DNA from: Vulcanimicrobiota bacterium
GTDB lineage: Bacteria > Vulcanimicrobiota > Xenobia > Xenobiales > JADMJV01
Direction of reading: 5' to 3'
DNA length: 64,000 nucleotides
Assembly: GCA_041676625.1 (NCBI GenBank)
Contig: JBAYRN010000015.1
Span: 1,555-65,554, forward strand
Of the stretch, positions 14,111 to 62,540 are shown piece by piece. Within the stretch, counting starts at the first letter, position 1. Each line of letters opens with the position of its first letter. The notes under the pieces are model-generated. The model worked only from the letters and a program-made list of their open reading frames with translations, did not search any database and had not been told where the DNA came from. A program made the position numbers and the translations under genes.

Positions 14111-17100
14111 TTATTCGGCGAACACTTGCACGCGTTCCACCCCGTAAGGTAAGGGAGTATCGTTGGGAGCAAGAACCACCTGAGCCCGTATGCGTTCGCG
14201 CAGGGCGGGCACGTGGGAAATGATTCCAACGGTCCTCCCTTCTTGCTTTAAGCTCTCCAAACAGTCCAGGGCTGCTTCCAGGGCGCGCTTGTCCAGATAG
14301 CCAAACCCCTCGTCTATAAAGAGAGTCTGCAGTTTTTCCCGGCTGTCACGCTCACTCTGCAGGATGTCTCCCAGCGCCAGCGCCAGGGCCAGCGAGGCTA
14401 GAAACGATTCTCCGCCCGAAAGGGTGGTGGCGGATCGCTCCCGGCCTGCCAAAAAGTCCATCACCGTCACTTCCAAGCCGGCTTTCAGGCCCAGACAAAA
14501 GCGGTTCGGAGCCAACACTTCCATCCTCAGATTGGCCGCCTCGATCACCCGACGGAACAACTTCTGCAAATACCAGTCGTGAAAGGCCATCCCCGCCTCT
14601 TCCCCGGACAGTCCGGCCAGTCGCTGCAGGTTGGCGGCTCGAGTCTCCAGGTGGCGAATCTCTTCGACCACCGCGTCGTACCTGGCAACATCTTCCCGCG
14701 ACTGCTCCATGGACTTCTCCAGCGTGGCCCGGCGCCCCGCCTTCAGTTGAAGCTGCTCTCTCTCCCGGGCCAGAACCTGGCGGATCTGTTCGGAGCGCAT
14801 CTCCGGCGCGGGCATGGTGGCCAGCAGTTCCTGGGATTGGTGTAGCTGCCGTTCCACGGTGCGGATCAAGGTTTCCCGATCCAGCACGGAGCTGTCACCC
14901 CTAACACTGGCTTCCCGGGCCATTCGACCCAGGGCAAAACTCAGGTCGTCCCAGCCCGCGAAGTCCAGCTTGAAGCTATCCTCCAGTTCGGCCTTGAGGT
15001 GGTTGGCCCTACCCTGCAGTTCGTCTCGGCGCATCTCCGAAGCCCTGCTCTCGGCTAGCTGAAGAGCGAAGGTCTCAGCCATCAATTCGGCCCGCTCGGT
15101 AGAGAATCGATGACTCTCTAACTCTTCCAGGCGCTCCTCCAGGCTCTGCTTCTCCTCTTCCACCGAACGCACCAATTCGTCGAACCCGGTTTCTTTCAGG
15201 CGGCCAAAAAATTCTCGCATGGTGACTTGCACCGCTTCCTTACGTGAATCGTATTGGGCTGAGACACCCTCCACCGTGGCCTGCAGACGCTCCTTCAGCA
15301 AGCGCATCTTCTTCAGGCGAACTCGAGCCGGTTTCAACTCCGAGCGCATAGCTTTGAGCTCTTTAAGCAGGTCCTCTTTCTTAGAAACCCTCGATTCCAC
15401 GACCTGAATGGTGTTTCTCAACCCCGAGAGCGTTTGTTCATCCAGGTCGGGTAGCACGTGCTCTTCCTCCTCCCGTTCCTGGAGGCGCCCGCCCAACCGG
15501 GCTACCCGCTCTCGAGCCTGGCCCAATTCCGCTCGAGCGTGCTCCAAACGCCGCTCCAGCGCGTCCAACCCCTCCTCGGACTCCATGACTTCAGCCTTCT
15601 TTTTTCGCCTCCCCTGAAACGGATCCGGGTGGGTCTCTGAACCGCAAAGAGGGCACGGCTGCCCCGACTTCAGTTGAGATTTCAGTCTGCGCAGCGACTC
15701 TTCCAGGTCAAGCTCCCTCTGCCGGGCCAGGGTTTCCCGGAGTTCTCGCTTCTCCGCTTCGAATTGATCGATGAGATCCAGAAAGCGGATTTCCCGAGCC
15801 CTGGCTTGCTCGAAGGCCTCCTGCAGGGCTTCGCTCTGGCGTCTCTTGCCTCTTTGCCTCTCCACGGTGTCAAGCTCCGCCTTCAGCCCGGCCAGCCGGG
15901 CCTCACCGGCTTTGATCTTTTCCAACTCCTGCTCGGTCAGCTCGATCTCCGCCTTCTGGTCCTTGATACTCAAGGCCAACTCGGCACGCAACTGCCCAAG
16001 TTCAGCGAGTTTCTCTTCGATCCGTTCCAACTCATCGGCCAGAGCCTGCACCCCTTGATAATCCTCCACCAGAGTGTCCAGCCGCTCCAGAGAGCGCCGA
16101 AGATTGAAACGCTCTTCCTCTAGAAGGCGGGCTTTTTCTACCTCCTCTTCTAGAAAGTTGGTGTCGGACTTCAAGCGCTCGTACTCGGCTCGCTGGTACT
16201 GAAGCTCCTCCTCAATCTTTTCTGCTTCCATCTGGACCCGGCGCCACTGCTCAAAGATCGGTAGGCTCTCCTGAAGACGCGCGACCAGCGCCGACTCCTC
16301 GTCATCGTCCTCATCTTCGCGCAACAGAGTGAGCTCCCGCTCGGACATCCCCCGCTGCCGGTCGAGCACTTCATAACGAACCGCTTCTTCCAGCGATTGC
16401 TCCCACTCCAGGCTGCGCTCCTGAAGAGCCCGACAATCGGAAGCGACCGCTTCTAACTCTCCTTGAGCGCGTTGATACATTTCCCTGGGGTCTCCCTGAG
16501 AGGAGTGATAGCGGGCGGTGATCTCTTCTCTGCGAATCCAGGCCTCCTCCAGTTTTCTTTTGGCTTGCTGGTGAGCTGCCTTGACCGCATCTTCCAGGCG
16601 CTGGTGGCGAGAGCTATTGAAGATATTGGCCAGGATCTGGTGCCTCTCGGCCCCCTCAGCCAGGAGAAACTTGCGAAAACTGCCCTGGGGCAAGATCGCG
16701 ACCTGGCAAAACTGTTCGGCGTTGAGCCCGAAAAGTTTTGAAATCATGGCCTCCACGCCCCCGGCAGAAGAGCTGATGATGTCGCGCCGAGTGGGTTCCC
16801 CGATAGCAGGAAGCCTATACAGCATCACCTCGTCGGGTTGAACCCGGGTGCCTTCCATGACAAACCGACGATCGATCCGATAGGCCTGCCCAAGGCTCTC
16901 GAAGTCCAGAGTGACAGCGGTCTCCTGACCGGCCGGGGTGCCCAGGTGTCGCAACCCCGAGCGGTCCCGCTCCCCTCCCGAACTTCTTCCGTAGAGGGCA
17001 AAGCAGATCCCGTCCAGGAGAAACGTCTTACCGCTACCAACCGGACCGTGGATCAAGAAAAGCTTGCTGTAGCGAAGAGCTCGCAGATCGATGACCTGCT

Positions 17101-17149
17101 CTTGCTGGAAAGGTCCGAAGGCCTGCAGAGCGAGTCGAAGTAGCTTCAT
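14111..17149 (-). CDS. sbcC: SbcC / Rad50-family DNA repair exonuclease ATPase subunit
   Basis: 1012 aa. Walker A HGPVGSGKTF, a long coiled coil with the Zn-hook GQPCPLCGSETHP, signature LSGGESF and Walker B LFIDEGFG. It overlaps sbcD by 4 nt. Confidence 0.95.
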   Translation of the reverse strand: MKLLRLALQAFGPFQQEQVIDLRALRYSKLFLIHGPVGSGKTFLLDGICFALYGRSSGGERDRSGLRHLGTPAGQETAVTLDFESLGQAYRIDRRFVMEGTRVQPDEVMLYRLPAIGEPTRRDIISSSAGGVEAMISKLFGLNAEQFCQVAILPQGSFRKFLLAEGAERHQILANIFNSSRHQRLEDAVKAAHQQAKRKLEEAWIRREEITARYHSSQGDPREMYQRAQGELEAVASDCRALQERSLEWEQSLEEAVRYEVLDRQRGMSERELTLLREDEDDDEESALVARLQESLPIFEQWRRVQMEAEKIEEELQYQRAEYERLKSDTNFLEEEVEKARLLEEERFNLRRSLERLDTLVEDYQGVQALADELERIEEKLAELGQLRAELALSIKDQKAEIELTEQELEKIKAGEARLAGLKAELDTVERQRGKRRQSEALQEAFEQARAREIRFLDLIDQFEAEKRELRETLARQRELDLEESLRRLKSQLKSGQPCPLCGSETHPDPFQGRRKKKAEVMESEEGLDALERRLEHARAELGQARERVARLGGRLQEREEEEHVLPDLDEQTLSGLRNTIQVVESRVSKKEDLLKELKAMRSELKPARVRLKKMRLLKERLQATVEGVSAQYDSRKEAVQVTMREFFGRLKETGFDELVRSVEEEKQSLEERLEELESHRFSTERAELMAETFALQLAESRASEMRRDELQGRANHLKAELEDSFKLDFAGWDDLSFALGRMAREASVRGDSSVLDRETLIRTVERQLHQSQELLATMPAPEMRSEQIRQVLAREREQLQLKAGRRATLEKSMEQSREDVARYDAVVEEIRHLETRAANLQRLAGLSGEEAGMAFHDWYLQKLFRRVIEAANLRMEVLAPNRFCLGLKAGLEVTVMDFLAGRERSATTLSGGESFLASLALALALGDILQSERDSREKLQTLFIDEGFGYLDKRALEAALDCLESLKQEGRTVGIISHVPALRERIRAQVVLAPNDTPLPYGVERVQVFAE

Positions 17150-18252
17150 AAGCTCTCGTCAAGCTCCCTCAAAAGGTCCATGCACTCCTGGTCCAATTCA
17201 AACTTGCCGACTTCCCGACAGTACTCCTGATAGTCCCGAATCAGCGCCGATATCGCCTCCGGTTCTTCCTCTTCTGCGGCGGCAAAGGGTGAAGGAAGTT
17301 CCACCGACACCACGTTGGGGCTCAGGATCCGAAGGTCGGCGCGTTGTTCGGGTGACAAGTTCTTCTCTTCCGAACGCAAAACCACCAGGTCATCGGTGCG
17401 AAGCTGGCTTCCCTGGTCCATCAACTCTTCCCAGCTGCCTTCCAAGACCTTTAAATTTCGCCGGGGTCGGAGAGGGTAGTGGTCGATGTAGACCTGATTC
17501 TTACCGGTGATTTCGTAAACGGTGACCGAGCGGCCCCTCTCCTGAGCTTCGGCTTCGTAACAGAGAAGACTGCCGCTGTAGTAAGCGTTGAGAGTCCCCA
17601 AGCGCAGAGGCTGGTGGCGCCCGCCCAGCGCGGCGACGTCGAAAAACTCCAGCAGGCGCTTCTCCAACGGTTGACCACCGGGTTGGATCAAAGGTCCGAA
17701 CTCTGGCACTCTCCCCCCGTCCTGAGCCCAGGCATAGCCCACAAAGACGTTGATCTCGCCGGGGTCCAGTCGCTGCACGACCTTCTCCACCAGGCGGTGC
17801 CCGACCAGGGCCGGGTGCTCCGGAGCGCCGCTGATCGAGGTTCCGCCTCTAGGATACGGCAGGCACCAGGTCTTGACCTCAAAGTTATCTCGAGCACCCG
17901 AAAACGACATGGGTGATAGAACCTGGGTCACGTCATCGATCAGGTGAATCCCGGCCTCCTTTACCCAACGCCCATCCAGATGCAGAGGCCGAAAGTCATC
18001 CGAAGGCCCGGCCAGAAAAATCAGGGTGGTACCCAGATTCAAGAACCGGTTGAGGCTGTGATGAAACAGTTCGAGAGCTTCCTCGCCGGGTTGTCGATGG
18101 TGAAAAACATCACCGGCGATGACCATAACGTCCGGGTTCAAATCCCGCACCAGGTGAAACATCTGATCCAAGACGTACTCCTGGTCGCTGCGTAGCGAGC
18201 GACCGAAAAAGCGCTGTCCCAGATGCCAATCCGAAGTGTGGAGTAGTCGCAC
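17146..18252 (-). CDS. sbcD: SbcD / Mre11-family nuclease subunit
   Basis: MRLLHTSDWHLG and VMVIAGDVFHH are calcineurin-like phosphoesterase motifs. The gene is coupled to sbcC. Confidence 0.95.
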   Translation of the reverse strand: MRLLHTSDWHLGQRFFGRSLRSDQEYVLDQMFHLVRDLNPDVMVIAGDVFHHRQPGEEALELFHHSLNRFLNLGTTLIFLAGPSDDFRPLHLDGRWVKEAGIHLIDDVTQVLSPMSFSGARDNFEVKTWCLPYPRGGTSISGAPEHPALVGHRLVEKVVQRLDPGEINVFVGYAWAQDGGRVPEFGPLIQPGGQPLEKRLLEFFDVAALGGRHQPLRLGTLNAYYSGSLLCYEAEAQERGRSVTVYEITGKNQVYIDHYPLRPRRNLKVLEGSWEELMDQGSQLRTDDLVVLRSEEKNLSPEQRADLRILSPNVVSVELPSPFAAAEEEEPEAISALIRDYQEYCREVGKFELDQECMDLLRELDESL

Positions 18253-18415
18253 AAGGGATCGTGTTCGGGTGGTTGGTTCTCTGCCCTGTATCCCTAAAAA
18301 AAACCGATTTCTAGAAATTGTAAAGAAAATTTCAGATTCGATTAAGGCCCACCATGTACATTGGTTCTAACAAGAAAAAGATACCGAGAATTTTCAAGGA
18401 GATCCATACTAACTC

Positions 18416-18724
18416 ATGACCGCCGCACCAAGTTTTTATCTGCCCGAAGAACTCGTCTACTTGCTGGAAAGTGTCGAAAATTTGCCTGCCGAAGAGATCG
18501 CTTACTGCGCTCTGCCTCACCTCGAAAGATTCTCGGATGCTGCACAGAAAGCCGAAATCGGATTTCAGTTGCTCAACAACATCAGCCGAAGCGCCTGTCC
18601 GGCCGCCGCTGAAGCCACCAAAGCTCTGGCCGTGATGGCCAAATTTCCCCACTACCCTCGCCCCCGGGCCGCCGTAGCCATGGCCGCCCTGAAAGGACTG
18701 GCCGGCGGAAAGACAGCTGCCTAG
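18416..18724 (+). CDS. Hypothetical small protein
   Basis: 102-aa ORF in the gap between sbcD and the HTTM gene. AAGGAGA lies 13 nt upstream and the codon usage is plausible. The competing minus-strand ORF 18332..18652 looks less protein-like. No motif recognised. Confidence 0.4.
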   Translation: MTAAPSFYLPEELVYLLESVENLPAEEIAYCALPHLERFSDAAQKAEIGFQLLNNISRSACPAAAEATKALAVMAKFPHYPRPRAAVAMAALKGLAGGKTAA

Positions 18725-18728
18725 GAGC

Positions 18729-20117
18729 CTAAGGCTGTTCAGCTAGGACCACCGGCTCCGGAACCACGGGCAAACCGGGCGGTTGAGATAACTCCTTTAC
18801 AAAAATTAGTCGTGCGCTTTTCGTTTCGATGTGAGGGTGCGACTTTTTCCATTTCTCCAGAAGATAGACCAGGGTGTCGCTGCGCCAGTTCGGAGTGTCC
18901 TGGATCTCTATCTGGATCAGGTTTTGCATCCAGCGGCGCCAACGCTGGTTGGGAAAGCGCGAGGAGCCCAAATGGGGCCGCCCCGACTCATCCACCGGAC
19001 CGCGCTGCAGGATATCTCTGACCCCCTGGTCGGTCTCCACCAACAACTGAAAATAGCCGTCCTCTCTAAACGGAAAGGGAGCAAAAAAGTGCCAGTGCTG
19101 GTGCTGGTAGGTGTAGCGAGCCACCACGTGGGCCCAGGTTGGAAGTTTCTGAACGTGGCCGATGCTGTAGATATTGACGTAGACCATGTAAGCCAGTATC
19201 AACCCGGCAAAAACCCGAGTCGGGGTGTTCAGGCGATAGCCCGGCGGCAACTCCTCAACCTCTGCGGTCGGCTCTTCAGGCCACCGACGGTCCCACCAGG
19301 CCCCCGGTACGAAAACCACCAGACTCACGATCATGATGAGCATGAAGATTCCCAGGTGCAACATCAGAGCGATCCCCAGGTGAAAGGAGACCGCCAGCAG
19401 CAAGAAGGACCCTCGGACCCAGGTAAAGCGAACCGGCACCAACAGCAAGATAGGCAGCAAAAACTCCAGTCCCAGGGCCGCCCAGGTGAGATAGCGGAGG
19501 ACTTCCGGGTAAGAGAGCAGACTCAGCCCCAGGTTCGTGGTGAACTGGTCGATGGAGAGCGTATAGTAGAGAGCCTCTCCGGTTTTGCGCCAGTCTTCAC
19601 CGGTCTTTAAGAGGGCGGCGAAAAAGTAAAGCAGGAAAAACTGCAGGTAGACCCCGACCGTGGCCAGACTGCGAAACTTCGGGGAGAGCTTCGACCAGTC
19701 TTTTCCTCGGGCATCCATCGACCAGCGTGCACCCAGGGGCAAGAAGAACGTCCAGAACAGAAGGACCCGCAAAAAATCGTCTCCTCCGTCCATGACCATG
19801 GGGTTGCGCAGTTGGATGGAGACCACGAAGTACCAGGTCACGAAGCAGGCCAGCCTGGTCTGGTAGCCCACCAGCATACAGACGGCGGCGGTGGCCCAAG
19901 CTGCAAAGAGAAAAAGCAGTCCGGCGGTATCTCCGGAGGATAAAAAGAGGCAGTAGACCGGGCTGAGCCAGGTCTGGGCAAAGACCGAGGGGCGAGAGAG
20001 CAGGCCCGCATCGCCGTAAAACGCTTGCAGATCCCGGAGCCTGAGGGCGATGTCCAGCAGCACCAGACCGGCCAGGCCGATCCGCCAGGCAGCCAGACTG
20101 CGCAAGTCCAGGGTCAA
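18729..20117 (-). CDS. HTTM domain-containing polytopic membrane protein (vitamin K-dependent gamma-carboxylase-like fold)
   Basis: 462 aa. N-terminal LRSLAAWRIGLAGLVLLDIALRLRDLQAFYGDAGLL followed by many TM helices, typical of HTTM. The C-terminal HWHFFAPFP region is also typical. It is a paralogue of 23015..24388. Confidence 0.8.
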   Translation of the reverse strand: MTLDLRSLAAWRIGLAGLVLLDIALRLRDLQAFYGDAGLLSRPSVFAQTWLSPVYCLFLSSGDTAGLLFLFAAWATAAVCMLVGYQTRLACFVTWYFVVSIQLRNPMVMDGGDDFLRVLLFWTFFLPLGARWSMDARGKDWSKLSPKFRSLATVGVYLQFFLLYFFAALLKTGEDWRKTGEALYYTLSIDQFTTNLGLSLLSYPEVLRYLTWAALGLEFLLPILLLVPVRFTWVRGSFLLLAVSFHLGIALMLHLGIFMLIMIVSLVVFVPGAWWDRRWPEEPTAEVEELPPGYRLNTPTRVFAGLILAYMVYVNIYSIGHVQKLPTWAHVVARYTYQHQHWHFFAPFPFREDGYFQLLVETDQGVRDILQRGPVDESGRPHLGSSRFPNQRWRRWMQNLIQIEIQDTPNWRSDTLVYLLEKWKKSHPHIETKSARLIFVKELSQPPGLPVVPEPVVLAEQP

Positions 20118-20124
20118 GACGGCT

Positions 20125-20835
20125 TCAGCCCCTTGGGGTGACCCGCGAGTCTACCCGAATGTAGTAGCTGGCCGGACCCTTGTCAGTGGGGTGGCCCGCT
20201 TCCAATCGGATGTCGTAAGAGCGCTTTCGTTCCACCGAAGCACCGCCCAGAAAGTCCCGGGTCCCGGCGCCGTCGTCCACCTCACCGGTGAACTCCGTGA
20301 CTTCGAAGCCGCACACGTCGTGCCCCAGGGTACGGGTCTCGGTATCGGAGGCGGCGGCGAAATCGGCGGTGTCCTGGTCGTCCATCTCGTCTGCCACCTC
20401 TTCCACGTCGGTGTTACCGGTGCGCCCAGCCCCATTGGTGTCTCCGTCGTCTAAGGGTCTCTCTTTGCGTATGAGCCGACCCAGGCTGGGGTCGGTGGGG
20501 TGAGCTTCAAAGTAGTAACAGATGAGCCTCTGCCAATAGATCTGGCCGGTCTGCTGGTCGAACTGAGCCTGGCCCTGGGGAGTGATGGAGGAGGCAAAGA
20601 CCACGCCCGGAGGCGAATCGTAGAGCCGGATCAACTCATGGCGGCTGTTGCTGAGTTCGGCGTTCAACATCCCCAGGGCCTTGATGGCGGAGCTTTGAGC
20701 CTCGGCGGCGGCCTGATTGGTCCGAAAGAGCAGAATGCCTTCGCGAAATACCTGAAAAGCTCCCGCGATGACGATCGACATGATGCCGATCGAAACCATG
20801 AGTTCCATGAGGGATATGCCCCGCCGGTCCCTCAT
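20125..20835 (-). CDS. Prepilin-type N-terminal cleavage/methylation domain protein (GspJ/PilW-like minor pseudopilin)
   Basis: The leader MRDRRG|ISLMELMVSIGIMSIVIAGAF has Gly-1 and Glu+5. An acidic DDGDTNGAGRTGNTDVEEVADEMDDQD loop is present. It overlaps the upstream pseudopilin gene as ATGA. Confidence 0.8.
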   Translation of the reverse strand: MRDRRGISLMELMVSIGIMSIVIAGAFQVFREGILLFRTNQAAAEAQSSAIKALGMLNAELSNSRHELIRLYDSPPGVVFASSITPQGQAQFDQQTGQIYWQRLICYYFEAHPTDPSLGRLIRKERPLDDGDTNGAGRTGNTDVEEVADEMDDQDTADFAAASDTETRTLGHDVCGFEVTEFTGEVDDGAGTRDFLGGASVERKRSYDIRLEAGHPTDKGPASYYIRVDSRVTPRG

Positions 20836-21332
20836 CGCATGGCGTCCCTGTAAACAAAAGTGGAGTAGCGCACGCTGTTGTTGTACTTGCCGTCTTCGAT
20901 GATTTCGCTACCGGTGGTGGAGTGCCAACGCACGGTCACCGAAATCCAACAGATATCCTCGGAGGCCTGGGGGATCAAAGGACGGTCGTTGGTATCCCCG
21001 TCGCCCGGGGTGGCATCGGTGTTGAGAACCAGATCGTAGAGGATGTTGAAACGGATATCGGCGCTGTTACCCCGGACCCGGCGCAACACCACGTAGTCCT
21101 CCTCTACGGGGACAGCCCCCGATTCGACCTGGCTCTTTAGCCAATCGAACCCGTTGGCGATCAAACCTTCGTTGACCCCTCGGGCCAGATGGTTGGCGGC
21201 GGTAAACTCTCCCGACATGGCCATGGCACGTCCGTACATCACCCAAACCCCGGAGAGGGCGACGGCGATCATGACAAAGACCCCCGTGGCAACCAGGGTC
21301 TCCAGCAAGCTATGCCCGTTTTGATGGCGCAA
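20832..21332 (-). CDS. Prepilin-type N-terminal cleavage/methylation domain protein (GspH/I-like minor pseudopilin)
   Basis: The leader MRHQNG|HSLLETLVATGVFVMIAVAL has Gly-1 and Glu+5. 166 aa. Confidence 0.8.
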   Translation of the reverse strand: MRHQNGHSLLETLVATGVFVMIAVALSGVWVMYGRAMAMSGEFTAANHLARGVNEGLIANGFDWLKSQVESGAVPVEEDYVVLRRVRGNSADIRFNILYDLVLNTDATPGDGDTNDRPLIPQASEDICWISVTVRWHSTTGSEIIEDGKYNNSVRYSTFVYRDAMR

Positions 21333-21345
21333 AGATACTCCGGAG

Positions 21346-22971
21346 TTACTTCATCTGCATAAGCATGCTACCACCACCACAACCCACACCTCCGGTAGGC
21401 GGCGGGGCTGGAGGCGGAGGGCCCGGCGGAGGGGGTCCGGGCGGAGGCGGGGGAGCGCCGAACCCTGAACCGGCGGGGGGCGGGGCCAGGGTCTGGGCTG
21501 ATTTCACAGCTCCCATGGTGGTGGCCGTGCCGCTAAGATTGAAGTCGAAGGTTCCAGCCACCGTAGACGCATCCAAGAGGGCCGTGTCGAAGTGAATCAT
21601 TCCGGTATCGGCCAGGCTTACCGAGCGGCCGAGCACCGAGCCCCAGAGCTGGGAGTCGGCCAGGATCCTGACATCCATCTCATATCCCGCCAGCAGGGCA
21701 AAGATCTCGCTGTCTTCCAGGATCAGCTCACACTCCCCGGCAGCATAAAACTTCAGGGCCCCGGGCGGGCAGTCTCGATTGACGTTGTTGCTACCGCTGA
21801 AGCGGATCTGAGGACCCTTTACATAGATCCGTACCGGGTCCAGTTTTCCGTCGTCGTCGGTGTCGTCGATCACGATGGAAGAAGACCCGCAGATGAAGCT
21901 TCCCTCCACCAGGTAGTCGGTGCCCTCGGCCAGGACCAGCCCGCTCCCGGGCACGCTATAGGAAGCCCCGGCTCCGCCGCCCAGCAGAGTCGCCTCCCCG
22001 GGTACCCGGGGAGCCTCGATCACCGGCAACCTCTTGTTCTGGTTCTGCTTACTGACCCAGCCGTTGAGGAGTTCATGGCCGGTCCCGGTGGCCCCATAGG
22101 ATCCGATGTTGTAGGTAGCAGGAGACCCGGAGGTCGTCCCCTCCCCCTGAGGAGCCGTCAGAAAACTGGTGATCTCGTTACTGGTGGCTCCTTCGTCGAA
22201 GAGTAGCCAGCCGTTGATTCGGGCGTTAGAGCCCAGGGTCACGGCGCCTGGCTGAGTGGGTTCCTCGTTATTGGTGGCCACGTTGGCCAGGGGTTGATCG
22301 AGGGAAGTAAAGGGAGTGTCAAGCGGAGGCACGAGGATATCCGTCCAGGGTCCTTTTCCGTCGCTGGCGCTCGAATCGAAGTGATCGATCCGGCCGTCGA
22401 TGTCCAGGGAATCCACCCCGAAAGCTGCGTGATTGAGGATGGGGAATTTGGGTGCGAGGGTGGCCCCCATGGTCACCTCTTCAGCCCGAATTCCGGACTC
22501 GGTTTCCCCCACAGCCATAATGTAAAAGTGCTCCGGCGGTACGATCGTGCCGTCGGGAGGGACGTTGAGGGGGTCATCATCATCATCGAGAGCAGCGGTG
22601 TCCGTGACTCCGCCCGCAAAGCCCTCCAGGTTGTGATAAAGCCGGGAAGCCGCGGTTACTCCGTTGGGCATGCCGATGAGCACCCGGCGGTCGATCTCAA
22701 GCCAGCTATCCCCGCTGATCCCGTCATCATCGAAGTCCATATCGACCGGCGGCTCTTTGAGCATCGCCACCGACATCTGAATAGCGGTGTAGGCACCGTA
22801 GTAGGCCTGATCGGACTGCCCCTTTCGAGACACCGAGTTGAGATTAAAGGCAGCCTGCGCTCCGATGGCGGCGGTGAAGACAGCCAGTACTGTGGCAAAT
22901 CCCAGAACTAGAACCAGGCCGAAACCTCGCTTCTGGTCTCTAGTCAGAGGTTTAGAATCCCTGGTGAGCAA
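21346..22971 (-). CDS. Large GspK/PilX-like pseudopilin-type protein with a polyproline C-terminal tail
   Basis: 541 aa. N-terminal DQKRG|FGLVLVLGFATVLAVFTAAIGAQAAFNL lacks Glu+5, as GspK does. DFDDDGISGD and DDTDDDGKLD are Ca-loop-like motifs. The C-terminus is APPPPPGPPPPGPPPPAPPPTGGVGCGGGSMLMQMK. Confidence 0.7.
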   Translation of the reverse strand: MLTRDSKPLTRDQKRGFGLVLVLGFATVLAVFTAAIGAQAAFNLNSVSRKGQSDQAYYGAYTAIQMSVAMLKEPPVDMDFDDDGISGDSWLEIDRRVLIGMPNGVTAASRLYHNLEGFAGGVTDTAALDDDDDPLNVPPDGTIVPPEHFYIMAVGETESGIRAEEVTMGATLAPKFPILNHAAFGVDSLDIDGRIDHFDSSASDGKGPWTDILVPPLDTPFTSLDQPLANVATNNEEPTQPGAVTLGSNARINGWLLFDEGATSNEITSFLTAPQGEGTTSGSPATYNIGSYGATGTGHELLNGWVSKQNQNKRLPVIEAPRVPGEATLLGGGAGASYSVPGSGLVLAEGTDYLVEGSFICGSSSIVIDDTDDDGKLDPVRIYVKGPQIRFSGSNNVNRDCPPGALKFYAAGECELILEDSEIFALLAGYEMDVRILADSQLWGSVLGRSVSLADTGMIHFDTALLDASTVAGTFDFNLSGTATTMGAVKSAQTLAPPPAGSGFGAPPPPPGPPPPGPPPPAPPPTGGVGCGGGSMLMQMK

Positions 22972-23014
22972 GTGTTATCCTTTCGATCCCTGACCAAGTT
23001 TAGCAAATTTTTTG

Positions 23015-24388
23015 CTACAAGTCATGAGCCTTTATGACACCGTGCCACAGGACCCAGTTTTCGGGGTCTCGGTACTGCCCGTCGCGGTCGACTGTTCGTA
23101 CCTGGAACCGATACAAGACATGACCACTCTCCGGAGGCGCCAGGATTCGAGCCAGGCCGGGCCTGAGCAAGGCGAACCTCGGGTAGAGGGAGGCTATCAT
23201 CATCATCTTCATGCGGTGGCTTGAAAACGAGTGCTCAGGGCTGGGGATCTCCAGTAGGATCTCACCCTCGGGCATGGAGAGGATTTGAAAGTGGCCGTTG
23301 TAGGGGGGGATCGGGCTGAAGAGGTCCCAGTGCTGCTCCAGTCGCAGGGCCTGGCTCAAGCCCACCAAAAACCCAGGGCGCTGGAAGGCCGGTCCCTCGG
23401 GGCGGGCCGCCAGATTCGAAAGTAGCGCCAGGCCCACACAGCCCACCAGGATCGGCTTGAGCGCTCGAGGGAGTGGGCCGGTGACACCCGTTTTGCTTCC
23501 CATCGCGTTGTCGAGATAGCGTTCCAGGCCGCTCAAGGGGCGTCTGTTCCACCAGTCATGGGACAGCAGTGGCAAGAGCGCGATCAGGCCGATCAGGGGA
23601 AAGAGCCCCAGCTTGAAGAGGAGAAAAACTCCCAGGTGAAAGCTCAGCAGTAGCCAGAACGCCACCGCGCGCAGCAGACGTGGCTGAAACGGGGTCAGCA
23701 GGAGAAGCCCGGCAAAAAGCTCTCCAGCCACCACCGCGTAGTTCATCGCCTTCAGCACCACCTCCGGGGCTCGCGCCAAATAGCCCGCCAACGTTCCGGC
23801 GAAAAGTGGACTCTGCAGAGAGTGGTAGAAGCCGTCTCCCCGGACCAACCAGAAATCACCGTACTTCAGAAAAGCCGCAAAGATATAGATCTGAGCCAGT
23901 TGCAGCAGATAGGCAGCCACCGGCAACCCCTCCTCGCTCCCGGAGGCCCCCCGGCCGGCCCGGGCGTCCAAAGACCAGCGGGCCCCCAGGGGAAGAAAAA
24001 AGCTCCAGAAGAGAAGCAGAGAAAGTTCCAGATCACCCCGATCGTTGACCATGGGGTTGCGGACCAACAGGGAGTTGAAGAGAAACCAACTGCCCACCGT
24101 CATCAGCCGGGTGCGCCAACCCAGAAAAAGCCCCAGCCCCAACCCCACCTGCAGCATGAGCAGTAGAAAAAGACCCATCCAGTGGCCCACCCCCAGGTGA
24201 AAACAGAGCCACTGCTGGGCAAACTCGGAGCGGCTGAAGAGAAGCCGGGGCAGCACCCCCTGGTCGGTGTAAAACTCGCTCAGGTGGCCCACGCGAGTGC
24301 CCACGTCGATGATCAGAAGCAGGCCCAGCGCTATACGAAAAAGGGCCAGCGATCGGAGATCGAATCTGGCCCATTTTTCCTGAGACAT
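23015..24388 (-). CDS. HTTM domain-containing polytopic membrane protein (second paralogue)
   Basis: 457 aa. LRSLALFRIALGLLLIIDVGTRVGHLSEFYTDQGVLP is followed by many TM helices and a QHWDLFSPIP region. Confidence 0.8.
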   Translation of the reverse strand: MSQEKWARFDLRSLALFRIALGLLLIIDVGTRVGHLSEFYTDQGVLPRLLFSRSEFAQQWLCFHLGVGHWMGLFLLLMLQVGLGLGLFLGWRTRLMTVGSWFLFNSLLVRNPMVNDRGDLELSLLLFWSFFLPLGARWSLDARAGRGASGSEEGLPVAAYLLQLAQIYIFAAFLKYGDFWLVRGDGFYHSLQSPLFAGTLAGYLARAPEVVLKAMNYAVVAGELFAGLLLLTPFQPRLLRAVAFWLLLSFHLGVFLLFKLGLFPLIGLIALLPLLSHDWWNRRPLSGLERYLDNAMGSKTGVTGPLPRALKPILVGCVGLALLSNLAARPEGPAFQRPGFLVGLSQALRLEQHWDLFSPIPPYNGHFQILSMPEGEILLEIPSPEHSFSSHRMKMMMIASLYPRFALLRPGLARILAPPESGHVLYRFQVRTVDRDGQYRDPENWVLWHGVIKAHDL

Positions 24389-24395: not shown

Positions 24396-25379
24396 TCAGA
24401 CGGTGACGCTTTCCCTTAAGAAAGCGGGCAAATCCCCGAAGTTTTCCTGATAGCGCCGGGCGAACTCTTGCGGGCTGTAGGCGTGCTTCTGGGTGCCGTA
24501 CTCCTCCACCACGAACACCGCCGCCACACTGCCCATCCGGCCGCATTCCAGATACGAGCAACCGTTAACCAGACCGGCCACGAAGCCTCCCCGGTAGGCG
24601 TCTCCGCAGCCGGTGGGGTCCAGCGCCTGGTCGGTCTTGACCGGGCTGACCTTGATCTCGTCCTGACCCCTGACCAGGATCCGGCTGCCCTCCTCACCGA
24701 GCGTGATCACCAGGACCTCGATCTCCTCGTGGAGTTCCTCTACCGATTTACCGGTCTTTTCGCAGAAGATGCTGAACTCGTAGTCATTGAGGATCAGGGC
24801 TTTGGCCCCCTTGGCCCCCTCCCACAGAAACTCACCGTCCATGGCGATCACCTGGAAGGAAGGGTCATAAAGAAGGATGGCTCCAGATTCTTTGGCTTCG
24901 ATGCAGTGCCGCTTCATAGCCTCGGGGTCGTCCGGGCTGACGATCACGTAGTGAGCACCTTTCAGGGCGTCCTTCACCGAAAGCTGTGAAGCCTGGTTCA
25001 TGGCACCGGTGTAGAAGCCGGTGATCTGGTTGTGTTTGGAGTCGGTGGTAATAAAGCAGGTCGCGGTCATCTCGTCGGGCACCCGCAAGATGTCTTCGGT
25101 CATCACCCCGGCCTCGGATAAAAACTGTTCGTACTCATCGAAGTCGTGCCCGGCACAGGCCAGAATCCGCGATTTTTCGCCCAGCAAAGACATGGTATAG
25201 GCGATGTTTCCAGCCACTCCACCCCGCTGCTTGATGACCTTGTCCACCAAAAACGATAGGTTGATCATGTGCAGTTTATCGGCCAGGATGTGGTCCTGAA
25301 ACTTGCCTGGAAAACTCAAGATAAAATCGAAGGCCAGCGACCCCGTCACCAGAACTCGGCAGTTGCTTGTTTTACTCAC
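24396..25379 (-). CDS. PfkB-family carbohydrate/nucleoside kinase (adenosine-kinase-like)
   Basis: 327 aa. GGVAGNIAY (signature 1 region) and DPTGCGDAYRGGF (PfkB signature 2). Confidence 0.9.
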   Translation of the reverse strand: MSKTSNCRVLVTGSLAFDFILSFPGKFQDHILADKLHMINLSFLVDKVIKQRGGVAGNIAYTMSLLGEKSRILACAGHDFDEYEQFLSEAGVMTEDILRVPDEMTATCFITTDSKHNQITGFYTGAMNQASQLSVKDALKGAHYVIVSPDDPEAMKRHCIEAKESGAILLYDPSFQVIAMDGEFLWEGAKGAKALILNDYEFSIFCEKTGKSVEELHEEIEVLVITLGEEGSRILVRGQDEIKVSPVKTDQALDPTGCGDAYRGGFVAGLVNGCSYLECGRMGSVAAVFVVEEYGTQKHAYSPQEFARRYQENFGDLPAFLRESVTV

Positions 25380-25448
25380 GATAGACTCCTTCAGACAGGT
25401 ATGGTTTCCCCCAATGTTCGTAGCTTAAACTCCAGGCCATGCGAGCGT

Positions 25449-26777
25449 TCAAATCCTGGCCACGGCGTCCAGTAGACTTTCCCAGGTATTGGAGGAGAGC
25501 TGATACCCTTTTCCCCCCTGCCAGACCGCCGGACCACCCTCCACGGTAAAGACCAGGGGTAAGGACTTACCACCCTCCAGGGTAAGGGTGATGCTCATCC
25601 TTTGAGAAGGCATGGTTTGGCCTTCCAGGACCGCTTCATAACGCAAGTCTTTCAAGACCCAGAGCACACCGCTGAGGGCCTCTTCTCCCGCATCCTTACC
25701 CTTCTGGGTCTCCCATTTCCCCATAAGGTTTTTTACCCCGGAGTACGACTTACCGATGTCCTGAAGCTCCAGACCCTTGACCTTGTCCATGTCGAAGATC
25801 GCCACTCGCCGGTCTTCGAAGGTCGAGGCGTCGGGGTTCATCAGCTCGCTGGAACGGCCGATCTCCACCACGAACTTCTCTAAAGTGTTGGGAACCGGTT
25901 CGCCCGTCTCGGGGTCCTGCAGATACCTCTGCCCATAGACAAACTGGGGCTGAACCCCCACTCGCTGCTTGAGTTCCGTAACCCGCAGATACTTGGAATA
26001 ACCGAGTCGGGCCTGGTAGGTAACCACCGTGTCTCCCATCAGGGTCTCCTCATCGGGGGCCAAAAAGCGTCCCACTTTGAGGTCTTTGAGTTTGAACAAA
26101 AACGCCTCCACCCGGGACTCGTCGGCCTTCCCGCTCTTCGGCACCACAAAGGAAAAGGTCTGGTCCTCATTCTGCTTGAGTTCCAGCACCTTGTCCCCGG
26201 CCAACAATACCGAAAGATTCTTGACCGCCGGGACATCCACCGGCAAAAGTGCGGTCTCTCGAAGGTCTTTGGGCTCTTCCTCCAGCACCCCGAGGGCGTA
26301 GGCAGGAACCGTCCAGATCGAGCCTCCACTTTCCAACTGTCCGTAGAAGTGGTTGTAGTCCGGGACCCGGTCTCCCAGTTTCACGGTGGCGACCTCCTTG
26401 CCGTCTTTCCACACCGTGATCCGATAGCTCGGTTCGTCCAAACCGAACTCCTTCTCCCGTTCGGCGTCCGGGTCGGGCTCCATTTCCCGCTCCCGACTCA
26501 ACTCCAGCACGCTGGTCACCAGTTGGTGCGACTTCTCGATCTTCAGCAAATGAGAATCGATAAACCACTCGTCCCCGTGGCTCACCAATTCGTACTCGAA
26601 AACCGGATCGGTGCAGACAACCCGAATCCTGGAGACCTCTTCCTCAGTGAGGCTGGGGAAATAGCGAGCCTCCTCGTACTCTCGATGGGTCGTCTGCAGT
26701 TTATTGGCCTTGGACCAGACGTAGAAGCAACCCAGGCTCAGAGCTGCGAGCAGCAGAAAAAGCTGGGTTCGGTTCAA
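25449..26777 (-). CDS. DUF4340-like protein (accessory protein that usually follows GldG-type genes)
   Basis: 442 aa with one N-terminal TM helix (LFLLLAALSLGCFYVW). Its position directly after the GldG-like gene, with a 4-nt overlap, is typical of DUF4340. Confidence 0.65.
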   Translation of the reverse strand: MNRTQLFLLLAALSLGCFYVWSKANKLQTTHREYEEARYFPSLTEEEVSRIRVVCTDPVFEYELVSHGDEWFIDSHLLKIEKSHQLVTSVLELSREREMEPDPDAEREKEFGLDEPSYRITVWKDGKEVATVKLGDRVPDYNHFYGQLESGGSIWTVPAYALGVLEEEPKDLRETALLPVDVPAVKNLSVLLAGDKVLELKQNEDQTFSFVVPKSGKADESRVEAFLFKLKDLKVGRFLAPDEETLMGDTVVTYQARLGYSKYLRVTELKQRVGVQPQFVYGQRYLQDPETGEPVPNTLEKFVVEIGRSSELMNPDASTFEDRRVAIFDMDKVKGLELQDIGKSYSGVKNLMGKWETQKGKDAGEEALSGVLWVLKDLRYEAVLEGQTMPSQRMSITLTLEGGKSLPLVFTVEGGPAVWQGGKGYQLSSNTWESLLDAVARI

Positions 26778-28189: not shown

Positions 28190-28192
28190 GAA

Positions 28193-28951
28193 CTAATCAC
28201 TCCACTTCCGGCTCTCCAGGGTGCGCACCGTGAGAAACAGAAAAAGTGCCGTCCAGGCCAGGAAATAGACCAGATGATGGCTGGTCACGGTGCCTCGAGC
28301 CATCTCCACCAGATGGTCCATCGGGGAGAGTCCGCCGAAGACGTCTTTGAGGCTCTGGATGTTGTCTCCGGCGATCACCACCAACCAGGAGGCCAGCAGG
28401 CCGCCGTAGGTGATCACCGCCGAAATCATCTGACTCGAGGTGAGGCTGGAAGCCCATATCCCGAAGGCCACGAAGGCACAGGAGAGTAGAAATACACCCA
28501 GATATCCCGAGAACACCAGCTTCCATTCGATATCCACCATTCGACCCAACACGATGAAGTAGGTGGAACTCAAACCCATCATCACGCTCACCACCCCCAG
28601 CGCTCCCAGAAACTTGCCCAGCACGATCTCCCAGTCCGCCAGGGGGTAGGTGAAGAGCATCTCCAGCATACCGACCCGGCTCTCCTCGGCGATCAAGCGC
28701 ATGGTGAGAACGGGCAAGAAGAAGAGCAGCAGATAGCCGATCCACTGAAAGGTAGGCACCATAACCCGGTCGCTCGGATTCAGGCTCTGGGCCCCGAAGG
28801 GCGAGGAGGAAGCAGCCAGGCTCTGGTCCGAGTAGATGCCCAGCAGCGAAACGAAGATAAAGCCTGAGATCAGGATAAACACGGCGATGACGATCCAGGC
28901 CAGGGCTGAGTTGAAGTAGGCGGCAAGCTCACGCCTGAGGATCGACAGCAT
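28193..28951 (-). CDS. ABC-2 type transporter permease (GldF-like)
   Basis: 252 aa with about six hydrophobic segments. It is adjacent to the ABC ATPase and GldG-like genes. Confidence 0.8.
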   Translation of the reverse strand: MLSILRRELAAYFNSALAWIVIAVFILISGFIFVSLLGIYSDQSLAASSSPFGAQSLNPSDRVMVPTFQWIGYLLLFFLPVLTMRLIAEESRVGMLEMLFTYPLADWEIVLGKFLGALGVVSVMMGLSSTYFIVLGRMVDIEWKLVFSGYLGVFLLSCAFVAFGIWASSLTSSQMISAVITYGGLLASWLVVIAGDNIQSLKDVFGGLSPMDHLVEMARGTVTSHHLVYFLAWTALFLFLTVRTLESRKWSD

Positions 28952-42637: not shown

Positions 42638-45004
42638 CTACAACCAGTTCATTAAAGTATCTTCTTCGCCAAACGCCTCAGCTTCGCGCTGCCCCTGAGA
42701 CGGCGCTGGTCTCCCTTCGCCGGAGGCGTGGGAGGGCGGCGGCGAAGTGGGCGTAGCCTCCGGGGGGGAGGCTTGAGCCGGAGCCGGGGGAGCGGTCTCC
42801 GCGGGCCGTGCCGGTGGAGGCGTGGGATGCGCCGCCTGAGGCGGAGCAGCCGGGCGGGCGGGGGCTGCGGGGGTTGCCTGCCGAGGAGCCGCCGAGGCAG
42901 CCTGCTCGATCCGCTCCAATTCGGCTTTGCCGACCTCGGGCTGAATGAGTCCGGTCTCCACCAATCGTTCGATGGAATCGCGGAAAGTCTGCATTCCTTC
43001 GGCCCCACCACCCATCAACTGGCGATGCAAGGCGGAAAGATTGGCGTCTTCGATCAGTCGGCGAACCGTACTGGTGGCCAGCAGCAACTCGGAAGCCGGA
43101 ACCTGTCCGTCGCCGTCGGCCCGTTCGAAAAGCTTGAGCGAGAGGATACCCTGGAGAGTCCGGGCAAAGAGACTAGCCCGCATGCGCCGCTCGCTTTCCG
43201 GGAAAAGGTTGATCAGACGGGGGATGGCGTCTTCCGCGTTTTGGGCCGTCACGGCACCTACCACCAGAAGACCTGAGTCTACCGCATTGAAAACAGCCTC
43301 CATGGTATTGAGGTCAGCCAGATCCGCGAGAAAGACCACATCGCAGTCCTGGCCCTGGGCTCGCCGCATACCTTGAGCAAAGGACACGATGTCGGCGTCC
43401 AACTCCCGCTGGGTCACCAGACTTCGTCGGTCTTCGTGAGTGAACTCCAGTCGGTCTTCCAAGGAAACCAGGTGCAGCTGCCGAGTCCGGTTCAAGTAGT
43501 CCAGCGAGGCTGTGAGCGTGGTGGAGCGACCAGAGCCGGGCAAACCACATACCAGCACCAGGCCTGAAGGCCGACCCAGTAAGGTCAGGTAGGCCTTGGG
43601 GAGACCCAGGTTCTCCAACTCCGGGGGGCGGTTCGAGAGCATCTTGAAGGTGGCCGACAGGTTGCCCCGATCAAAGAAGACATTGGCCCTCAGGCGAATA
43701 CTCTCGTATTGATAAACGAATTCGATATCACGCTCTTCCACCAGTCTCCGGCGATGGTCCGGTCTGAGGGCCGAGGTAATGAGATAGTAAGAATCCGCCG
43801 GGGTTAAAGGTGGGGTCGAAAATTGGATCAGCTCTTTACCAATACGAGCGGTGATCGCCCGACCTGTTTTGATGTGCAGGTCGGAAACGCGGTTCTTGAC
43901 CATTTCCCGCACCAGGTCTCGAAGGGTGAGTTTCAGTTGGGTTTCACCGAGGGGAGGAGCCAGACCATCATCGGCGGCAGCCGGAGCAGCCACCACTGCC
44001 GCTGCCCCTTCGCCCAGATTCTTGGTTTTTTCTTCCAGTTCATTGACCAGGCGCAACGCCTCGTCAAGCTGTTCCTGATGTCGATCCGCCTGCTCGGAGT
44101 ACTTCAGGAACTCGTCGAGCTTCTGCTGCAGATCGCTGCCCCCCACGGAAGAGACCCGATCCTCCACCTCTCGGACCCTGTCCTTCAGCCCGGCCATCTC
44201 ACCGGCCAGAGCCGTAACGTCGTCGGAAGAGACCGAAGATGTGATAGAAGGTTGCGAACTGACCCGTTCGAGGTCTTCTCTGGTGGGTACCGCTTCGTAG
44301 GCTTCTTGAAGCTCGACGATGGCCGTTCGAAGTACATCGAGATCGCCTGCCACGACCTCTCTGATGACGTCCCTGTCCACCGGACCACCGACTGCAGGAT
44401 TGTTGGCAAGACTGGCCTGGATCATGTCCAGCAGTTCCTCTTGCCGATCCTCTAAGATTCGGTCCAATCCATCCTTGAGGTCCTGGATCTTCTCATCCAG
44501 CTCGGTTCGCAAAGCGGCCACCTGCTCGGCTGATGCGCCGCCACCGGATCCAGCCCTGGCTTCCCGGCCCAACGCTTCGATCTTCAGTTCGAGGCGGGCT
44601 TCCAGATCGTCCAGAGAAGTTACCAGTGATTGTTCGAGGAGAATGGGCAGATTCTCCAGGGGGCCGATATCGCCCAGATTGTCCAATCGATGGGCGAATT
44701 CCTGAATCCGCCCCTCCATGAACTGAAACCTGTCGAACACCTGCTCCAGGCGGTCGTCCTGGGCTTCGATGTGATCAAAAACTCGACTCATCGAGTCGCT
44801 CACGTCGCCCCCCGAGCGGGTCTCTAGTGTTTCCACCTTAGCGCGCAAAGCTTGAAAGTCGCGCGCCTGCATAGCGCTGGAAAGCGATACGGTCTTGAGT
44901 TCGTCTTCGATTGAAACTATCCGAAAATCAAGTTCCGATACTCCTTCGGAGGAGCCTTCGCTACCAGGATCGTCGCGCCGAAAACGATGTCGTGGTGAAT
45001 CCAT
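42638..45004 (-). CDS. PilT-family (secretion ATPase fold) protein with degenerate catalytic motifs, an N-terminal coiled-coil region and a Pro-rich C-terminal tail
   Basis: 788 aa. PilT-like core: VSDLHIKTG, GLVLVCGLPGSGRSTT, LEDRLEF, DVVFLADLAD, TVRRLIED. The N-terminal ~350 aa are acidic and heptad-like. The C-terminal ~85 aa are Pro/Ala-rich. Confidence 0.85.
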   Translation of the reverse strand: MDSPRHRFRRDDPGSEGSSEGVSELDFRIVSIEDELKTVSLSSAMQARDFQALRAKVETLETRSGGDVSDSMSRVFDHIEAQDDRLEQVFDRFQFMEGRIQEFAHRLDNLGDIGPLENLPILLEQSLVTSLDDLEARLELKIEALGREARAGSGGGASAEQVAALRTELDEKIQDLKDGLDRILEDRQEELLDMIQASLANNPAVGGPVDRDVIREVVAGDLDVLRTAIVELQEAYEAVPTREDLERVSSQPSITSSVSSDDVTALAGEMAGLKDRVREVEDRVSSVGGSDLQQKLDEFLKYSEQADRHQEQLDEALRLVNELEEKTKNLGEGAAAVVAAPAAADDGLAPPLGETQLKLTLRDLVREMVKNRVSDLHIKTGRAITARIGKELIQFSTPPLTPADSYYLITSALRPDHRRRLVEERDIEFVYQYESIRLRANVFFDRGNLSATFKMLSNRPPELENLGLPKAYLTLLGRPSGLVLVCGLPGSGRSTTLTASLDYLNRTRQLHLVSLEDRLEFTHEDRRSLVTQRELDADIVSFAQGMRRAQGQDCDVVFLADLADLNTMEAVFNAVDSGLLVVGAVTAQNAEDAIPRLINLFPESERRMRASLFARTLQGILSLKLFERADGDGQVPASELLLATSTVRRLIEDANLSALHRQLMGGGAEGMQTFRDSIERLVETGLIQPEVGKAELERIEQAASAAPRQATPAAPARPAAPPQAAHPTPPPARPAETAPPAPAQASPPEATPTSPPPSHASGEGRPAPSQGQREAEAFGEEDTLMNWL

Positions 45005-62506: not shown

Positions 62507-62540
62507 GCGTATCTTTCTACCACTTTCTCTTGTCATACCA

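Follow-up and report, generated by a model that had tools for sequence, protein, structure and literature searches.

Conserved linkage of GGCX-like HTTM membrane proteins with a pilin-like trio in a gene cassette of uncultured bacteria

Enzymes of the gamma-glutamyl carboxylase (GGCX) family, whose membrane domain is of the HTTM type, are well understood in animals only. In human GGCX, vitamin K hydroquinone is deprotonated by the base K218, whose replacement in K218A abolishes catalysis; the substrate glutamate is coordinated by N158, N159, and H160 (PMC12589487). The bacterial contexts that surface in the literature searched are SdpB, LinG, and MloH. In Bacillus subtilis, SdpB and SdpA are both needed for conversion of the C-terminal region of the secreted protein SdpC into the SDP toxin (PMC6818787), and the HTTM-type transmembrane protein of linaridin pathways (LinG/CrdG) is genetically required for peptide maturation (PMC9927463; bioRxiv 10.1101/2020.07.09.196543). 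MloH, a bacterial GGCX relative, carries out the alpha-carboxylation of an aspartyl residue, and the family is thus not restricted to glutamate. A 64,000-nucleotide stretch of a Vulcanimicrobiota bacterium (contig JBAYRN010000015.1, positions 1,555 to 65,554; hereafter "the window") contains a five-gene cassette in which two HTTM genes, HTTM-A and HTTM-B, enclose genes for three pilin-like proteins (the "trio"), and this cassette supplies a genetically linked candidate substrate.

The cassette lies on the minus strand between positions 24388 and 18729, and its genes are separated by 43, 13, -4, and 7 nt. The coordinates, strand, and spacing of the five open reading frames (ORFs) all match an original prediction made from the sequence of the window. 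It appears probable that the HTTM proteins and the trio form a functional unit, the former acting on the pilin-like proteins or together with them. On balance, the cassette is best read as a specialised minor-pilin set that would be matured in the membrane by dedicated, menaquinone-dependent GGCX-like enzymes. A conserved peptide at the C-terminus of the largest pilin-like protein is proposed, tentatively, as the site of HTTM action; this proposal draws on sequence conservation and on analogy, and it is put forward with clearly less assurance than the functional unit itself. Any particular chemistry would at present be a poor guess.

The window has matches among ENA metagenome contigs. A search that started from relatives of the large subunit and HTTM-B led to 13 independent trio loci (designated by L numbers; L008, at 2.3 kb, was excluded as too short), and at least one HTTM gene adjoins the trio in 11 of them. 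Absence of this adjacency from all relatives was among the outcomes that would have refuted the original prediction; the adjacency persists despite changes in flanks, gene order, and copy number. L003, L007, and L010 share the window's order (HTTM, large, small, medium, HTTM) among wholly different flanking genes. The B-type HTTM gene of L004, labelled as a Vulcanimicrobiota bacterium, has moved to a divergent upstream position, and in L011, from a marine metagenome, the trio is followed by three HTTM genes. A single B-like HTTM gene follows the trio in L015/L016, a distant relative (E 2e-29); a single A-type gene precedes it in L018; the C-terminus of an HTTM protein is encoded upstream of the trio in L014; and on the short contigs L005 and L009 the HTTM gene adjoins the large subunit. 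The other two loci are L017 and L020. Two of the related loci are labelled Vulcanimicrobiota.

BLAST typing resolves the HTTM genes into two orthologous lineages, A, usually found upstream of the trio, and B, usually found downstream. Both are retained in the window, L003, L004, L007, L010, and L011. The A-lineage gene is upstream in L003, L004, L005, L007, L009, L010, and L018 and downstream in L011. The linkage of HTTM genes to the trio is not due to chance, because it is kept through replacement of the flanks (L003, L007, L010, L011, L015, L018), through permutation of gene order, and through divergence to about 30% identity, unlike the ABC transporter and PfkB genes that precede the cassette in the window. 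A GspF/PilC platform gene abuts the cassette in L010. A lone HTTM gene beside a DUF1559 N_methyl protein in a Bythopirellula metagenome-assembled genome (L012) was judged unrelated, as the trio is absent there.

The two outer proteins are HTTM paralogues, as originally proposed. Both score above the gathering cutoff (27.7 bits) of the Pfam HTTM family PF05090 (HTTM-A, 44.1 bits; HTTM-B, 49.6 bits), and they share 35% identity over 373 aa (E 4e-49). Their matches to the SdpB model TIGR04033 (export_SdpB) are weak, at 27.7 and 53.7 bits, far under the cutoff of 178.4. A profile of the HTTM family built from a 44-sequence alignment (A5) matches human GGCX in the PDB (E 1e-8); a PDB search with the single sequence of HTTM-B gave no match, and the profile was needed to reach GGCX. 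One lysine column is invariant in A5 (K175 in HTTM-A, K171 in HTTM-B), and in the profile alignment it pairs with K218 of human GGCX. Further invariant polar residues in A5 are R104, N105, S133, Q159, Y164, and E218. In the hidden Markov model alignment, the substrate-coordinating residues N158, N159, and H160 of GGCX pair with D-G-G in HTTM-B and with D-R-G in HTTM-A. The residues of the glutamate pocket are thus not conserved, classical gamma-carboxylation of glutamate is not indicated, and the reaction of HTTM-A and HTTM-B is probably a different one, contrary to one of the suggestions in the original prediction.

An AlphaFold2 model made for HTTM-B alone is of high confidence (predicted local distance difference test, pLDDT, 94.8; predicted template modelling score, pTM, 0.93). 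In a Foldseek search of the PDB with this model, the top 15 matches are all human GGCX (best E 8e-8, about 488 columns), with TMq values of 0.45-0.54 over the top 15 and 0.50-0.54 in the first 14. As the match extends over about 488 columns, the non-membrane C-terminal domain of HTTM-B is also GGCX-like. HTTM-A and HTTM-B are read as complete and probably catalytic relatives of GGCX with a different substrate pocket.

The three inner proteins have the class III prepilin-type leaders quoted in the original prediction, and these leaders are conserved across the orthologues (↓ marks the predicted processing site). In every orthologue, the leader of the large subunit follows the pattern (K/R/S/M)G↓(F/Y/V)(G/A)(L/I)(V/I/L)x(V/L)(L/M)G, and none has a glutamate at position +5. 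The small-subunit leader reads G↓H(S/N)LLE. Its histidine at +1 is found in 11 of 11 small subunits from trio loci other than L017 (nine aligned sequences plus those of L018 and L020; nine of the 11, all except L008 and L020, have an HTTM gene in the contig). The small subunit of L017, which lacks an HTTM gene in its contig, reads G↓LGLLE, with leucine in place of this histidine. The medium-subunit leader is G↓(I/M/L/T)(S/G/T)L(I/M/V/L/A)E. Glycine at -1 and glutamate at +5 are thus present in the window's small and medium subunits and in most orthologues, and the large subunit has the glycine without the glutamate.

Matches to curated pilin models vary within the trio. The expected N_methyl domain (PF07963, cutoff 21.2 bits) was found in the medium subunit (29.0 bits); the small subunit falls short of the cutoff (19.4 bits) and the large subunit has no match. 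The medium subunit also comes close to the cutoff of TIGR02532 (15.8 vs 16.3 bits). A T2SSK domain (PF03934), also anticipated for the large subunit, is not matched in Pfam, and the GspK model NF037980 gives 18.3 bits against a cutoff of 130, over N-terminal residues 15-73 only. No protein of the trio reaches threshold with the curated GspI/J/K and PilX models. Profile searches of the PDB gave a spurious endoglucanase for the large family, weak matches to pilin N-terminal helices only for the medium family, and no match for the small family.

Four kilobases downstream of its HTTM-linked cassette, L007 contains a second, canonical-looking pseudopilin trio (16163-18975, minus strand), whose proteins are 590 aa (no tail and no DUF7305 match), 170 aa (G↓FTLAE), and 227 aa (G↓FTIVE) long. 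The medium family aligns with the canonical Phe+1 pseudopilin of this second trio (hhalign probability 97.6%, E 3.4e-12, 122 columns), and the homology extends well past the N-terminal helix. Alignments of the large and small families with the canonical trio are weak or confined to that helix. Since L007 has a canonical second trio, the HTTM-linked trio appears to be a specialised paralogue set. We read it as a paralogue of a minor-pilin tip set, for which the medium subunit provides good evidence, the large subunit reasonable evidence, and the small subunit evidence at the level of motifs.

Word-indexed searches with the large subunit, either full-length or without its Pro-rich tail, returned two relatives only, and an exhaustive profile search was needed to recover 748, of which 20 have E <1e-30. 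The window protein is a marginal member of DUF7305 (PF23981), at 26.7 bits against a gathering cutoff of 27 (residues 355-466). In a Pfam scan of ten large-subunit relatives (designated by P numbers), nine reach the cutoff and one is sub-threshold. Scores of 34-64 bits were obtained for P0140, P0143, P0148, P0159, P0161, and P0213, and P0002 has a precomputed match. The large-subunit family as a whole clearly belongs to DUF7305. Of the 74 relatives that were read, most are 370-670 aa long, begin with a basic segment that gives way to a hydrophobic one, and match DUF7305 close to the C-terminus; one relative has a sub-cutoff PilX_N match (16.7 vs 25.5 bits). The AlphaFold2 model of the large subunit (input alignment of three sequences) has a long N-terminal helix followed by beta-sheet, and its sole confident part is the beta-rich region of residues 330-460 (pLDDT 70-88). 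Foldseek matches of this model to DUF3494 ice-binding beta-solenoids are weak (E 8e-3), and because the model is of low confidence, its fold matches are suggestive only. In one DUF7305 subgroup (L017, 549-2534, plus strand; P0148, P0155, P0158, and P0184), the C-terminal regions are long, contain many CxxC/CPxC motifs, and resemble metal-binding or disulfide-rich modules. L017, which has no HTTM gene nearby, and the HTTM-linked L005 come from one metagenome-assembled genome. L020 (1135-6746, plus strand) has three tandem large-subunit paralogues flanking one small and one medium subunit, and only the first of these paralogues ends in a GGGGGSMEMK tail.

In all large-subunit orthologues, a short conserved peptide forms the C-terminus and is tethered to the rest of the protein by a low-complexity linker, a feature that the original prediction did not mention. 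The composition of the linker varies by lineage (Pro-rich, Thr-rich, or (GTS)n). Examples of the tail are GGVGCGGGSMLMQMK in the window, GCGCGCGGGSMMLKMK in L003, GCGCGGGSMKVNASV in L010, and GCGCCGGGSMMMSLKSRQAAL in L011. The tail core, G-(C-G)n-G-G-S-(M/T/Q/A) plus 3-14 residues, is kept down to 31% identity despite the changes in the linker. The 15-residue Gly/Cys/Met tail of the window protein includes G-C-G-G-G-S-M-x-x-x-K. Distant relatives have other Cys-rich endings (e.g., GCGCGCGCLLAEQQCL and CCLDYSCGPPKCMIY) or long CxxC-rich regions, and the majority of the DUF7305 pilins that were read are tail-less. As a conserved peptide on a variable, flexible tether, the tail is a candidate recognition or modification site. 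It appears to be a better candidate than the Asp-rich loops to which HTTM action had originally been assigned, because these loops are poorly conserved. The three Asp-rich motifs are indeed present in the window proteins. However, orthologues of the medium subunit do not retain its acidic stretch; in the large subunit, L010 and L011 lack the first acidic motif, and L005 and L010 lack the DxDxDG motif. The loops are thus not supported as targets.

Other explanations of the tail were considered and rejected. A C-terminal sorting signal (MYXO-CTERM, GlyGly-CTERM, PEP-CTERM, or similar) is not matched by any NCBIfam model at E up to 1, and the motif is followed by only 3-14 non-hydrophobic residues and no transmembrane segment. 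The Gly-Cys repeats could suggest a substrate for heterocyclisation of the TOMM (thiazole/oxazole-modified microcin)/YcaO type, but no cyclodehydratase gene is linked in any locus. A CPBP/Rce1-like intramembrane protease is encoded divergently to the L011 cassette (3786-4913, minus strand), with weak similarity to MrtJ, MrtS, and myxosortase. Processing of the tail by this enzyme is conceivable there, but as a partner of the cassette in general it was rejected, for it lies beside the cassette in L011 only. The tail may also differ with the HTTM lineage present: L018, which has only an A-type gene, has a Cys-less tail, and L015, which has only a B-like gene, has a Cys-rich tail without GGGSM. 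With one locus each, a pairing of the A lineage with the GGGS-M..K part and of the B lineage with the Cys-Gly part of the tail is tentative.

Taken together, these features suggest a self-contained module, present in a group of uncultured bacteria, that would encode a minor-pilin set and one to three dedicated GGCX/HTTM enzymes. The large subunit would be of the ComZ/GspK/PilX class, and the two smaller partners would fill GspI-like and GspJ-like roles. All three pilin-like proteins would be held by their N-terminal helices in the cytoplasmic membrane, with their globular parts outside. There they may encounter HTTM-A and HTTM-B, since homology to GGCX would place the active site and the C-terminal domain of both on the non-cytoplasmic side; this topology fits an action on unassembled pilins in the membrane. 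The HTTM proteins probably use menaquinol and O2 on a protein substrate, because the lysine that deprotonates reduced vitamin K in GGCX is kept. The most likely substrate would be the C-terminal peptide of the large subunit, presented on its flexible linker like a core peptide fused to a carrier. The matured trio would then enter a type IV pilus/type II secretion-type machine encoded elsewhere in the genome, probably at the filament tip.

Several observations weigh against such a maturation system. Four relatives (P0124, P0133, P0136, and P0141) have Cys-less Gly tails, and since one of them, at L018, has an HTTM neighbour, cysteine is not a universal target. The trios of L017 and L020 are without an HTTM gene inside their short contigs (7.4 kb and 6.7 kb). 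The small and large subunits are under the curated pilin thresholds, and alanine replaces glycine at -1 in the medium subunit of L003 and in the small subunits of L011, L018, and L020. Neither a prepilin peptidase nor a major pilin was found among the scanned genes of the window, so processing and filament incorporation are putative. The model of the large subunit has a mean pLDDT of only 45.9, and its match to the Thermus tip pilin ComZ (6qvi_B; E 0.016, probability 0.77) is not significant.

Conserved linkage shows a functional tie and not a chemistry, and the HTTM proteins might instead be non-catalytic membrane partners (chaperones, docks, or assembly platforms) that hold or fold the trio without modifying it. 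A role in folding has been proposed for the HTTM-related lipase maturation factor, the loss of the GGCX glutamate pocket would be in keeping with such a role, and the two retained paralogue lineages could reflect a hetero-oligomeric scaffold. This explanation is unlikely, however, as the K218-equivalent lysine is invariant in 44 of 44 members together with the six other polar residues, a pattern typical of active sites. Among the bacterial relatives, MloH acts catalytically as a carboxylase; SdpB and LinG, for which no chemistry has been established, are needed for maturation on genetic evidence. Equally unlikely is that the trio proteins are single-pass anchored accessory or substrate-recruiting subunits of an HTTM complex acting on another substrate, with their prepilin-like N-termini serving as mere anchors. 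In favour of this view, the GGCX-like architecture of a bacterial HTTM-DCC protein is predicted to be completed by a single-pass DUF5819 protein (bioRxiv 10.64898/2026.08.19.745780), the scanned genes near the cassette include no major pilin, peptidase, or secretin, and the histidine at +1 and occasional alanine at -1 are atypical of processed prepilins. Yet HTTM-A and HTTM-B each possess a C-terminal domain already, and the alignment of HTTM-B with GGCX is full-length. For the medium subunit, homology to a canonical pseudopilin extends far past the helix, and the large subunit is a member of the broad DUF7305 family, whose proteins are mostly 370-670 aa long and begin with a basic segment followed by a hydrophobic one. 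Gly-1 and Glu+5 are also kept in most orthologues, and the L010 cassette is abutted by a GspF/PilC gene.

In the version originally put forward, the HTTM paralogues would gamma-carboxylate glutamates, or modify the acidic Ca-loop-like stretches, and so create Gla-like calcium sites. Kinship with GGCX and the conserved catalytic lysine speak for this version, and the DxDxDG-type motif of the large subunit is fairly widely conserved (e.g., DTDADG, DTNGDG). It is nonetheless very unlikely, given that N158/N159/H160 are replaced by D-G-G and D-R-G and that the acidic motifs are patchy (not conserved in the medium subunit and, in the large subunit, each missing from two loci) and rich in aspartate rather than glutamate. 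Least probable of all is a chance neighbourhood, or a lineage-specific synteny, without functional connection. The window cassette does sit in a longer co-directional run, and synteny of its upstream ABC/GldG/DUF4340/PfkB genes extends to L004 and L009. However, the linkage between HTTM genes and the trio persists where the flanks are fully exchanged, where the order is permuted, and where identity has fallen to about 30%, and these neighbours are not kept in such cases; chance is effectively refuted.

Maturation of a minor-pilin set by GGCX-like enzymes, the reading preferred here, also has a bolder form, which is speculative and rather improbable as a whole. A menaquinone-dependent enzyme pair, possibly with one enzyme per motif, would convert the tail of a pilus-tip protein. 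The pair would then be the first GGCX-type enzymes in bacteria to act on a protein from the surface of their own cell, and the product would be a new post-translational modification that arms or anchors the tip of a type IV filament. Possible reactions include carbanion chemistry at glycine or cysteine (an aminomalonate-type carboxylation), quinone-driven thiol cross-linking, and SdpC-like excision of the tail.

The positions of the cassette genes and of their principal features are given in Table 1.

Table 1. Cassette genes and sequence features, by position in the window
Feature	Position	Strand	Description
HTTM-A	24388..23015	-	457 aa; GGCX-like polytopic membrane protein, upstream paralogue lineage
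HTTM-A Lys175 codon	23864..23866	-	Counterpart of GGCX catalytic base K218
Large minor-pilin-like subunit	22971..21346	-	541 aa; GspK/PilX-type leader without Glu+5
Large subunit, layout			Pilin-like N-terminal part, DUF7305 beta-rich domain, Pro-rich linker, conserved C-terminal peptide
Large subunit, leader and hydrophobic N-terminal helix	22852..22971	-	Class III-like, ..DQKRG↓FGLVLVLGFATVLAVFTAAIGAQA
Large subunit, DUF7305 region	21574..21909	-	Residues 355-466; predicted beta-solenoid-like; contains DDTDDDG motif
Large subunit, Pro-rich linker	21394..21486	-	Low complexity, APPPAGSGFGAPPPPPGPPPPGPPPPAPPPT
Large subunit, conserved C-terminal peptide	21349..21393	-	GGVGCGGGSMLMQMK; proposed recognition/modification site
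Small pseudopilin-like subunit	21332..20832	-	166 aa; leader MRHQNG↓HSLLETLVATG, His+1, Glu+5
Medium pseudopilin-like subunit	20835..20125	-	236 aa; leader MRDRRG↓ISLMELMVSIG
HTTM-B	20117..18729	-	462 aa; GGCX-like polytopic membrane protein with C-terminal non-membrane domain, downstream lineage
HTTM-B Lys171 codon	19605..19607	-	Counterpart of GGCX K218, within 'VKKLD'

In the window, the cassette forms the downstream end of a longer co-directional run (24396-29948, minus strand) that encodes an ABC ATPase, an ABC-2 permease, a GldG-like protein (ABC_transp_aux), a DUF4340 protein, and a PfkB kinase. This run is tightly packed into HTTM-A, with the PfkB gene ending 7 nt ahead of it. The block is syntenic in L004 and L009 only, which argues for lineage synteny, and it is probably a module separate from the cassette. 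A scan for promoters and terminators gave nothing interpretable. Directly downstream of the cassette, beyond a 476-nt gap, lies a nuclease gene pair (14111-18252, minus strand) encoding SbcC-like (1012 aa) and SbcD-like (368 aa) proteins; the gap contains a small plus-strand ORF (18416-18724, 102 aa) with no Pfam match.

The original prediction had held that the window contains no pilus machinery. This holds for a major pilin, a platform protein, a prepilin peptidase, and a secretin, none of which is found among the window genes scanned, a set that leaves out, for example, the ORFs at 301-828, 54387-55253, and 61814-62641. It does not hold for pilus-type ATPases, as a 788-aa T2SSE ATPase resembling the PilT/PilU family is encoded 18 kb from the cassette (45004..42638, minus strand), with a Pfam T2SSE match and a TIGR01420 score of 281.6 bits against a cutoff of 319. 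Its N-terminus carries an added coiled-coil segment of about 350 residues, an architecture not usual in retraction ATPases, and its gene stands alone among metabolic genes.

Elsewhere in the window, a 567-aa protein with an IQCH-like ATP-grasp domain and a PGM1 C-terminal domain (60114-61817, plus strand) is encoded after a GAF-adenylate/guanylate cyclase gene (58857-60080), and two ORFs (11453-13423, minus strand, 656 aa; 9274-9945, plus strand, 223 aa) have no Pfam family on record. In L018, a 1063-aa Tubulin_2 (PF13809) and SHOCT protein (4366-7557, minus strand) is encoded convergently to the cassette, beside a small rubredoxin gene.

In comparison with known systems, the cassette enzymes resemble GGCX itself, with which they share the HTTM membrane domain, the non-membrane domain that follows it, and the lysine equivalent to K218. 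They differ from GGCX in their low identity (about 15%), in the replaced glutamate pocket of the window enzymes, in the lack of a propeptide-bearing Gla-type substrate, in the presence of two or three paralogues per locus, and in their pilin-like neighbours. The SdpB/SdpA/SdpC system (with its paralogue YitO/YitP/YitM) resembles the cassette in that an HTTM membrane protein is encoded beside an exported candidate substrate. In contrast to that system, the cassette has no SdpA-like gene, and its HTTM proteins score far under the SdpB cutoff. SdpC is a toxin precursor with a hydrophobic C-terminal domain, whereas the putative substrate here is a 541-aa pilin-like protein with a Gly/Cys/Met tail. 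Linaridin pathways (LinG/LinH, CypH, CrdG) likewise use an HTTM-type maturation protein, and the tail of the large subunit on its flexible linker resembles a core peptide. However, the cassette lacks LinL, the alpha/beta-hydrolase partner LinE, a methyltransferase, and a short precursor peptide, and its putative core stands at the end of a large membrane-anchored protein.

Like the minor-pilin sets GspI/J/K and PilV/W/X and those with Thermus ComZ, the trio comprises several co-encoded proteins with class III-type leaders, including one large subunit without Glu+5; the combination of a pilin-like N-terminal part with a beta-solenoid-like domain recalls ComZ, though weakly and on a low-confidence model. 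Unlike these sets, the trio has a histidine at +1 in its small subunit and a linker and tail at the C-terminus of its large subunit, and its genomic partners are HTTM genes, not a major pilin or assembly genes. For pilus biology, the cassette suggests that a tip-type minor pilin undergoes a maturation step that had gone unrecognised, and many large pilins of the DUF7305 type bear a short Cys/Gly-rich C-terminal peptide on a flexible linker. Demonstration of a GGCX-type modification of a pilus protein would be of substantial value. The carriers are uncultured bacteria (two loci with a Vulcanimicrobiota label, one from a marine metagenome), and any function assigned to the cassette would therefore be new biology in these organisms. 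No paper in the literature searched joins HTTM with a pilin or mentions DUF7305, and NCBIfam has no curated model describing an HTTM-pilin pairing. The components, GGCX-type enzymes and minor pilins, are familiar, and the maturation of exported proteins by HTTM proteins has precedents; the pairing of such proteins with a pilin trio appears to be new.

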